Made by a program: the position numbers and the translations under genes | In this document: in pieces, positions 28,397 through 29,202 of the stretch | Layout: every line of letters starts with the position of its first letter | Position numbering within the stretch: position 1 is the stretch's first letter | Notes under the pieces: generated by a model | Told to the model about the DNA's origin: nothing | Seen by the model: only the letters and a program-made list of their open reading frames with translations | The model's database searches: none | Source: an uncultured Candidatus Binatia bacterium | Lineage (GTDB): Bacteria > Desulfobacterota > Binatia > Bin18 | Assembly: GCA_965214605.1 (NCBI GenBank) | Contig: OZ243961.1 | Coordinates: 192,001 to 256,000, forward strand | Direction: 5' to 3' | Length of the DNA: 64,000 nucleotides

Positions 28397-28711
28397 ATGG
28401 CAAGCCGCATCCGAAAAAACGATACCGTTCAGGTCATGACCGGCAAGGATAAAGGCAAGATGGGCGAGATTCTCCAGGTTTTTCCGGAACAAGGCCGGGT
28501 CACGGTCCGCGGCCTCAATATGGTCAAACGCCACGTCAAACCGAACCAGCAACAGCAGCAGGGCGGTATTGTTGAGAAAGAGGCGCCCCTCCACATCTCC
28601 AATGTCATGCCGCTTGACCCTGACGACGGCCGCCCGACCCGGGTCGGGTTCAGGATTATTGAGGGGAAAAAGGTTCGCGTCGGTAAGCGAACGGGCAAGG
28701 TGCTCGACTGA
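28397..28711 (+). CDS. rplX: 50S ribosomal protein L24, orphan Cys-free copy
   Basis: IRKNDTVQVMTGKDKGK (KOW), GGIVEKEAPLHISNV, PTRVG; not flanked by rplN or rplE. Confidence 0.95.
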   Translation: MASRIRKNDTVQVMTGKDKGKMGEILQVFPEQGRVTVRGLNMVKRHVKPNQQQQQGGIVEKEAPLHISNVMPLDPDDGRPTRVGFRIIEGKKVRVGKRTGKVLD

Positions 28712-28733
28712 CCGGGCCGTCCATCGACACCAG

Positions 28734-28766
28734 AAAAAAAGCCGACGGAGTGCGTCGACTTCTTTT
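28734..28766 (-). terminator. Intrinsic terminator after rpmG, possibly bidirectional
   Basis: Minus strand AGUCGACG-loop-CGUCGGCU followed by a U-run. Confidence 0.6.
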
Positions 28767-28782
28767 GCGGGCTCGCCCGCTG

Positions 28783-28938
28783 CTATTTCAGGCGGGTCTC
28801 TTTATAAATGACGTGTTTACGAGCCACTGGATCGTATTTTTTGAGCTCGAGTTTATCCGTCATGGTCTTTTTATTTTTGGTCGCAATGTAAAAGTGACCG
28901 GTTCCGGCCGACGATTCCAGTTTGATTTTTTCGCGCAT
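28783..28938 (-). CDS. rpmG: 50S ribosomal protein L33, zinc-free (C-) form; below the ORF-track size cutoff
   Basis: Manual translation [60 protein letters not shown]. Confidence 0.95.
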
Positions 28939-28965
28939 GGTTTATCCTCCTTTTGCAAGGCCCGT

Positions 28966-29202
28966 CTACACTTTGACACCGCGCTGACGCATATCTTTTA
29001 AGACTCGTTCGATACCCAGCTTATCAATCGTCCGAATCCCACGTGCGCTTAAACGTAAGCGTATCCAGCGTTTCTCGCTCGCAAGCCAAAACTTGTGGGT
29101 CTGCATGTTTGGAAGAAAACGCCGTCTTGTTTTGTTGTGGGCGTGGGATACATTATTCCCGGTGCGTGGGCGTTTGCCAGTGACCGGACACAATCTCGAC
29201 AT
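28966..29202 (-). CDS. rpmB: 50S ribosomal protein L28, long form without CxxC
   Basis: [31 protein letters not shown]; upstream of rpmG. Confidence 0.95.

Follow-up and report, generated by a model that had tools for sequence, protein, structure and literature searches.

A lone, cysteine-free rplX beside a probable zur gene: likely fixed replacement of zinc-ribbon uL24, bL33 and bL28 in one Candidatus Binatia genus

Why should rplX, the gene for ribosomal protein uL24, lie outside the spc operon beside rpmG (bL33) and rpmB (bL28) among genes for metal handling, and is its cysteine-free product a reserve for zinc starvation or the only L24 that the cell makes? The question is raised by a 64,000-nucleotide stretch of DNA (C1:192001-256000, hereafter the window) from the genome of an uncultured Candidatus Binatia bacterium (G000; 4.37 Mb in nine contigs, 99.99% complete, 1.75% estimated contamination). 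We use C+ for ribosomal proteins with a cysteine zinc ribbon and C- for those without the ribbon cysteines, a dichotomy of bacterial ribosomal proteins that was reportedly set out by Makarova, Ponomarev and Koonin in 2001. uL24 is an early protein of 50S assembly and, as a syntenic ribosomal marker, is widely used in concatenated trees. Our answer is that the three genes are very probably the only, housekeeping genes for uL24, bL33 and bL28 in the window's genus, and that their C- products displaced the ancestral zinc-ribbon forms in a fixed swap, not as a backup for starvation.

For comparison we used 40 relatives together with the window's own genome; below, g1 is the window's genus, g8 its sister genus and f5 one family of the set. 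The three genes are as follows.

28397-28711, plus strand: rplX, encoding uL24 in its C- form (104 amino acids, no cysteine; PF17136, E 4.2e-31)
28783-28938, minus strand: rpmG, encoding bL33 in its C- form, only copy (51 amino acids, no cysteine; PF00471, E 8e-18)
28966-29202, minus strand: rpmB, encoding bL28 in its C- form, only copy, apparently of proteobacterial type (78 amino acids, one cysteine; PF00830, E 7.9e-28)

Copy number and vacant operon slots

The product of rplX is a full-length member of the uL24 family, scoring 130.6 bits against TIGR01079 of NCBIfam (cut-off 53.7) across residues 3-102 and, in the Pfam search, 107.5 bits against PF17136 and 34.6 bits against KOW. The list of open reading frames (ORFs) places rplX convergent with rpmG and rpmB, which are adjacent on the minus strand. 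The initial annotation, which was made from the sequence alone, had described this arrangement and the cysteine counts correctly, and it was also right that rplX lies outside the spc operon. The S10-spc-alpha cluster is found on the same contig at about 1.57-1.59 Mb, 1.36 Mb from rplX (C1:220397), and in it the end of rplN (1582464) and the start of rplE (1582442) are 21 nucleotides apart, with rplX missing from the slot.

The annotation had gone on to suggest a search for an spc-operon rplX in the same genome and had held that a sole copy would speak against its view of the gene. We found a sole copy. Protein and Pfam searches agree on one L24 locus in the whole genome, the only further tblastn match being a 42-residue KOW segment (E 0.25). 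bL33 likewise has one locus, as does bL28, for which the second match reached just 10.7 bits (E 2.5), and no C+ copy of any of the three proteins was found in the genome. A survey for genomes with two copies of rplX, also suggested at the outset, was equally negative: none of the 399 genomes of the phylum with an L24 match has two L24 loci, each having exactly one. In the comparison set, 38 of 41 genomes (the window's own included) have exactly one L24, and the three misses are genomes that are 80-87% complete.

The vacancy in the spc operon is a property of the genus. The gap between rplN and rplE is 17-63 nucleotides in all eight g1 genomes, including one (G001) in which rplX itself is unassembled, and it is 328-576 nucleotides, with rplX inside, in every one of the 30 genomes from other genera. 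In each of the seven g1 genomes with a match, rplX is distant from rplN and beside rpmG. The slot of rpmG is vacant as well: the window's genome has the order tuf, 45 nucleotides, tRNA-Trp, secE, nusG, and in a relative (G014) the order is tuf, rpmG (C+), tRNA-Trp, secE, nusG. The scar of a native rpmB was not located in the window's genome, where the flanks of the G014 rpmB are not syntenic. On our account the old rplX went cleanly from the rplN-rplE junction, and the old rpmG just as cleanly from the tuf-tRNA-Trp junction.

We note in passing the arrangement of the two tuf genes. In the str region of the window's genome (C1:1590124-1587885, minus strand) an EF-Tu gene comes immediately after rpsL and rpsG and precedes rpsJ, and the ORF list holds no ORF of the size of fusA between rpsG and tuf. 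The second tuf, at C1:1603567-1602266, is the one upstream of tRNA-Trp-secE-nusG.

Cysteine states among relatives and transfer of the rpmB-rpmG cassette

The relatives' L24 set comprised 37 sequences, the partial one of G018 having been left out. L24 is C+ in 25 of these, whose C-terminal hairpin has four or five cysteines in a CxxC...CxxC pattern (as in MCERCNAPVRVG...CRRCGELLDK), and C- in 12, of which seven belong to g1, three to g8 and two to f5. The hairpin of the window's protein, PLDPDDGRPTRVGF...VGKRTGKVLD, aligns opposite the CxxC...CxxC of the relatives, and the CEHC...CRRC of a C+ relative aligns in turn opposite the CPAC...CAKC of solved 50S L24 chains (4v9j_BY and entries of the 1vy4 series in the PDB, which we take to be Thermus thermophilus ribosomes). 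The cysteine-free stretch therefore does stand at the position of the zinc ribbon, as had been supposed.

L24 does not stand alone in this respect. L33 is C+ in 25 of 35 genomes, where it has 50 amino acids and is encoded in the tuf-secE cluster, and C- in the seven g1 genomes, G020, G031 and G038; L28 is C+ (63 amino acids, four cysteines) in 25 of 34 genomes, that of G035 being left out, and C- in the seven g1 genomes, G020 and G038. For L31, all eight g1 genomes and G014 have the C- form and 17 others the C+ form; for L32, all eight g1 genomes have the C- form and 21 others the C+ form. In the window's genome L31 and L32 are each present as a single copy, and L36, S18, S14 and S4 retain their cysteines. 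The genus g1 has thus fixed zinc-free forms of L24, L28, L31, L32 and L33 without paralogue pairs, and its large subunit accordingly requires five zinc ions fewer than the large subunit of its relatives. Zinc economy may have been the selective reason for the swap.

Loss of the ribbon is seen elsewhere in the class. In f5 (L020 of G036 and L038 of G028) it has taken place independently and in place, inside the spc slot; a single one of the four cysteines survives in the L24 of G036 (LLCPSTNKPTRVG...ARVSG), none in that of G028. L33 is also cysteine-free in two other families of the class (L076 of G031; L077 and L092 of G038), and G038 has a cysteine-poor L28 of 102 amino acids in addition. Judged from the L33 and L28 cases, loss or displacement of the ribbon recurs across the class.

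Where did the replacements come from? Outside its own cluster (at least 79% identity), the nearest homologs of the window's L28 are 78 amino acids long and 71-77% identical. Five of the 120 listed are named, and these come from metagenome-assembled genomes, four of Gammaproteobacteria and one of Acidimicrobiia. Comparison of the window's L28 with the C+ L28 of its own family gave only about 47 bits. By its sequence rpmB-rpmG appears to be a xenolog of proteobacterial type, a call that rests on L28, L33 having been compared among the relatives.

The pair has evidently gone on moving. A g8 genome (G020) contains a 582-nucleotide stretch, made up of promoter, rpmB, rpmG and terminator, that is 94.5% identical to its counterpart in G004 of g1; the rplN/rplE DNA of the same pair reaches about 71%. 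In G020 neither L28 nor L33 is present in a C+ form. The near-identity of the stretch shows that the rpmB-rpmG cassette was transferred laterally and recently into the sister genus. A scan of public genomes yielded records titled Candidatus Binatia bacterium, and in about 19 further species a C- L24 of g8 type occupies the L14-L24-L5 slot. An instructive case among them is G432, assigned to g8 because its spc DNA is 93% identical to that of G024. It has two L24 loci, the first being a full-length rplX of g8 type in the spc operon and the second a 5'-truncated rplX of g1 type that retains the 3' two-thirds of the gene (residues 40-104, 85% identical). The truncated gene abuts rpmG-rpmB in a 769-nucleotide block that is 93.9% identical to G004. 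Meanwhile, the native C+ rpmB of G432 is a pseudogene with a 2-nucleotide deletion and in-frame TGA and TAA codons (88% DNA identity to the intact gene of G024), and its native C+ rpmG is intact beside tuf. Since a C- rpmG was also acquired, G432 holds a living C+/C- pair for L33.

C1:2398387-2398512, C1:2359864-2360001 and C1:3484762-3485440 (all in G432): intervals that together hold the acquired cassette with its truncated rplX, the native rpmB pseudogene and the native rpmG

The cassettes of G020 and G432 have no flanking sequence in common and so occupy different insertion sites. G432 displays the order of events, in which acquisition of a small C- cassette comes first and decay of the native C+ gene follows.

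The metal neighbourhood and expression of the trio

The genes and elements around the trio are these.

26336-26785, plus strand: Fur-family regulator gene (PF01475, E 1e-13)
25682-25990, plus strand: CobW/COG0523 GTPase gene, surviving as a remnant upstream of the Fur-family gene (107 amino acids at 31% identity by tblastn with the CobW of G020)
15387-16127, minus strand: ZIP zinc transporter gene (PF02535, 55.1 bits)
16185-16868, minus strand: CDF-like cation-efflux gene (PF01545, 29.3 bits)
26786-28320, no strand: unique insert of about 1.5 kb between the Fur-family gene and rplX, single copy, in the window's genome only
28321-28396, plus strand: conserved region upstream of rplX, with TATGAT at 28355-28360 and the Shine-Dalgarno sequence AAGGAG at 28381-28386 (alignment of seven g1 genomes)
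29250-29285, minus strand: conserved element TGcTATAAG upstream of rpmB, with the -10 at 29255-29250 (alignment of seven g1 genomes and G020)
28743-28757, no strand: GC-rich hairpin between the convergent genes, with an A run and a T run at its flanks (CGACGGAGTGCGTCG then ACTTCTTTTG)

In the six other g1 genomes without exception the Fur-family gene ends 81-91 nucleotides upstream of rplX on the same strand; it is beside rplX in all seven, with the insert of about 1.5 kb intervening in the window's genome. The insert (55% GC; minus-strand ORFs of 162 and 100 amino acids) gave no match in Pfam, NCBIfam or Rfam and has no counterpart in the six other g1 contexts, the part shared with them being the last 75 or so nucleotides of the region searched (28321-28396, the promoter region of rplX).

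By sequence the Fur-family product could be placed in no subfamily: it scored 51 bits against the PerR model and 43 bits against the Fur model of NCBIfam, both below the cut-offs, and its matches to Fur, PerR and FurB in the PDB are weak. The gene context, with its links to COG0523, ZIP and CDF genes, tips the balance toward zur. Full-length CobW homologs (47% identity) lie directly upstream of the Fur-family gene in three of the seven g1 genomes (G003, G004 and G005), and in G020 and G024 of the sister genus its ortholog is divergent from a COG0523 gene. A full COG0523/CobW paralogue is present elsewhere in the window's genome, at C1:1431596-1432729. The ZIP and CDF-like genes form the far end of the zinc neighbourhood, about 10 kb away, and are syntenic with the sister genus; in G014 and G020 the neighbours of the Fur ortholog are homologs of the genes at 15387-21622 of the window, these two included. 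The trio is thereby linked to a probable zur, to COG0523 and to zinc transporters. Synteny with g8 stops 3' of the Fur-family gene, which puts the trio at the breakpoint, and the replacements would have settled together at this break in synteny, just downstream of the probable zur.

The neighbourhood has a copper side as well. Directly after rpmB comes a gene (29333-29830, minus strand) for a copper storage protein of the Csp1 family, a four-helix bundle with a twin-arginine-like leader (TIGR04401, 110.6 bits; cut-off 100), and upstream lies a gene for a SCO1/SenC copper chaperone (23389-24096, minus strand). The metal island of the initial annotation is borne out in part, by the Fur-family, SCO1/SenC, Csp1, ZIP and CDF-like genes and the COG0523 remnant.

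Is the trio under zinc control? A perfect 19-bp palindrome, TTTGCAATTATATTGCAAA (TTTGCAA-N5-TTGCAAA), lies upstream of cobW in G003, G004 and G005 (at about 1270-1290 of L044 and at the equivalent position of L045 and L047), and versions with one mismatch lie between zur and cobW in G020 and G024 (at about 8630-8650 of L116). This is a candidate for the Zur operator of the lineage, and it is seen only ahead of cobW or zur. In the window's genome the box is not enriched (six near-matches against 5.2 expected), and none of the near-matches is near ribosomal genes. A repeat scan of G000 and G003 and upstream alignments of seven or eight genomes revealed no Zur-like AT-rich inverted repeat ahead of either rplX or rpmB, the comparison having been with a candidate box that may not be that of the lineage. 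A different palindrome, ACAGGGGAAcTTCCCTTGT, is found upstream of rplX in the other g1 genomes; it is degenerate in the window and occurs in a loose form once elsewhere in the same genome. An Rfam search of 22000-34000 (E <= 1) had no match, and hence no known leader or RNA gene near rplX.

The conserved TATGAT and TGcTATAAG elements may act as sigma-70-like promoters, one for each transcription unit; the -35-like hexamer upstream of rpmB is TTGGCC in the other genomes and GTAGCC in the window. The hairpin at 28743-28757, which travels inside the laterally transferred cassette, is probably a bidirectional terminator common to the rplX and rpmB-rpmG units. Each unit would accordingly have conserved promoter elements of its own, and one terminator would serve both. 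Given that no Zur-like operator is visible, the trio is most likely expressed constitutively, as far as its upstream sequences allow such a judgment.

Origin of uL24, rival readings and known systems

In a tree of L14 and L5 the family is monophyletic (support 95/90), and g1, g8 and the remaining genera form a trichotomy within it. The L24 tree built from all columns groups g1 with Bacillales and Alphaproteobacteria (99/98), which is not a fair test of origin because the ribbon columns are included. With the ribbon removed (N-terminus, 71 columns), the placement of g1 with Bacillales and Alphaproteobacteria persists (90/85), and g8 is found among its class. The N-terminus of g1 L24 is 58% identical to the family, 59% to g8, 61% to Alphaproteobacteria and 58% to Bacillales; that of g8 is 75% identical to the C+ proteins of the family. 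The hairpin of g8 L24 is 60% identical to Bacillales and 37% to its own family, the ranges for g1 and g8 hairpins together being 60-63% and 36-37%. On these comparisons rplX, too, is probably foreign, though the case is weaker than for L28. The N-terminus of the g8 protein has a native look, and the divergence of the hairpin, which exceeds simple loss of cysteines, seems to resemble the in-place exchange of rpsN described in the available part of PMC8046335.

Could rplX nonetheless be what the initial annotation made of it, namely, a zinc-sparing paralogue, repressed by Zur, that replaces a zinc-ribbon L24 during zinc starvation? The protein is cysteine-free where its relatives show CxxC...CxxC, it is encoded beside an rpmG-rpmB pair that is likewise of the C- form, and a Fur-family gene with COG0523, ZIP and CDF links precedes it closely in every other g1 genome. 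These features are offset by the absence of a second rplX, rpmB or rpmG from a nearly complete genome, by the vacant spc slot in all eight g1 genomes, by the lack of a Zur-like palindrome upstream of rplX or rpmB, and by the lack of any genome with two L24 loci among the 399 of the phylum. Repression of the sole copy of an essential ribosomal protein at normal zinc would be lethal. The proposal fails, and we regard it as very improbable. What survives of it is that rplX encodes the C- form of a protein that is a zinc ribbon in most relatives and is grouped with C- L28 and L33 by a probable zur; what does not survive is a starvation-induced alternative to another L24. Least credible of all is an artefact, in which the trio came from a contaminant or an assembly error and the true rplX went missing at a gap. 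The nine contigs and the estimated contamination of 1.75% leave some room for such an error, but the trio and the rplX-less spc operon are carried on one contig of 4.31 Mb, the same arrangement is found in six other g1 genomes, two of them in a single contig, and the flanks are syntenic with the sister genus.

A more serious rival, which we consider rather unlikely, is a vertical history: the ancestor of g1 and g8 would have lost the four L24 cysteines in place, the g1 gene would later, through duplication and loss, have been relocated to the zur locus and have changed at a higher rate, and only rpmB-rpmG would be foreign. The L24 of g8 is also C- and yet occupies the canonical slot, and it has the same length of 104 amino acids as the g1 protein and a C-terminal hairpin 69% identical to it. 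The species tree permits g1 and g8 to be sisters, and f5 (G036 with one cysteine, G028 with none) provides an example of decay in place. Opposed to this are the N-terminus of g1, which is as close to Alphaproteobacteria and Bacillales as to its own family (that of g8 is 75% identical to the family) and which groups with the foreign sequences in the tree without the ribbon, and the hairpins of both genera, which depart from the family C+ form and approach that of Bacillales beyond what simple loss of cysteines would bring. Several observations weigh against a foreign, fixed and constitutively expressed trio. The approximately unbiased (AU) test does not reject one clade uniting the L24 of the family, g1 and g8 (p = 0.107), which leaves monophyly standing, and the trichotomy of the L14-L5 tree would permit a single in-place loss followed by transposition. 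The nearest outside homologs of g1 L24 are only 56-63% identical, and because of this and the shortness of L24 no donor can be named. The canonical position of the g8 C- gene belongs here too, as does the failure of a consensus promoter scan to flag either TATGAT upstream of rplX or TGcTATAAG upstream of rpmB, and the adjacency of a probable zur and COG0523 in g1 could mean that some zinc-dependent control persists. We nevertheless hold displacement by acquired C- genes, followed by fixation, to be much the better account of the trio.

How, on that account, was the exchange accomplished? An essential gene cannot be deleted before a substitute is present, and a stage with two copies of L24 beside the probable zur must therefore have existed. 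A tentative extension, which we think quite doubtful, sees in the locus the remains of an island of alternative ribosomal proteins, uL24 among them, under Zur control: the ancestor of g1, and perhaps of g8, would have switched between a C+ rplX in spc and a C- rplX on the zur side according to zinc supply and would then have lost the C+ set. If so, uL24 was once part of the zinc-switch repertoire, Binatia with two copies may still live, and the L24 of g8 would be a chimera produced by gene conversion between the two copies. The 69% identity of the g1 and g8 hairpins gives such a chimera weak support because C- hairpins are conserved generally, those of Bacillales and Alphaproteobacteria being 69% identical as well.

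What is new here is that uL24 is the protein concerned, that its gene has left spc, that five proteins were swept in one genus and that one genome has been caught in the middle of replacement. Evidently, uL24 can be exchanged for a zinc-free version and leave one of the most conserved operons of bacteria, and a whole genus has dropped five zinc sites from its large subunit. The L24 of g1 will be absent from syntenic ribosomal blocks and may mislead concatenated trees, and the conserved zur-COG0523-rplX arrangement is a place to look for a zinc-linked switch of L24. Literature searches, which included the available parts of PMC10450194, PMC3578206 and PMC8046335, found no L24 in a Zur regulon of this kind, no zinc-switch paralogue of L24 and no rplX outside spc; species with two forms of uL24 may appear in the supplementary tables of PMC10450194.

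How does the locus compare with known systems? With the C+/C- dichotomy it shares homologs with and without the CxxC...CxxC ribbon. That L24 would be a new member of the set was mistaken: as far as the available part of PMC10450194 (Nucleic Acids Research (NAR) 2023) goes, uL24 of T. thermophilus binds zinc, uL24 is listed with bL28, bL31, bL32 and uS14 as a (CXXC)-(CXXC) protein, and it has been sorted into C+ and C- forms across 2021 bacteria. The difference is that g1 switched five large-subunit proteins together, and that the switch of L24 went with exit from spc and clustering with rpmB-rpmG, no coexisting L24 pair being left. Zur-regulated systems of C- paralogues similarly have cysteine-free L28 and L33 in one locus beside Fur-family and COG0523 genes, but the window's genome has no C+ partner and no Zur-type operator was found in it, and its genes must always be expressed. 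The zinc-ribbon uL24 of solved 70S ribosomes is of the same fold family, and its CPAC...CAKC stands opposite the relatives' CEHC...CRRC; the window's protein differs in having PLDPDD...KRTG there and is of Bacillus or Escherichia coli type. The transfers of zinc and non-zinc S4 (PMC3087516, available part) are likewise lateral exchanges of the two forms of a core ribosomal protein, here a different one, the S4 of the window's genome being still C+. Finally, the available part of PMC8046335, in which L24 or rplX does not occur, describes spc operons from which rpmJ1 or rpsN1 has been deleted, the type-2 copy at another site being all that is left, and the in-place exchange of rpsN in Streptococcus pneumoniae. 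As here, an essential gene leaves the spc operon given a different second copy elsewhere, and the L24 of g8 resembles the in-place case; the difference is that the gene is rplX and that the two-copy stage is no longer seen. So far as these sources go, the process is the known displacement of C+ by C- forms through transfer and loss, with rpmJ and rpsN (PMC8046335) and S4 (PMC3087516) as its closest precedents.

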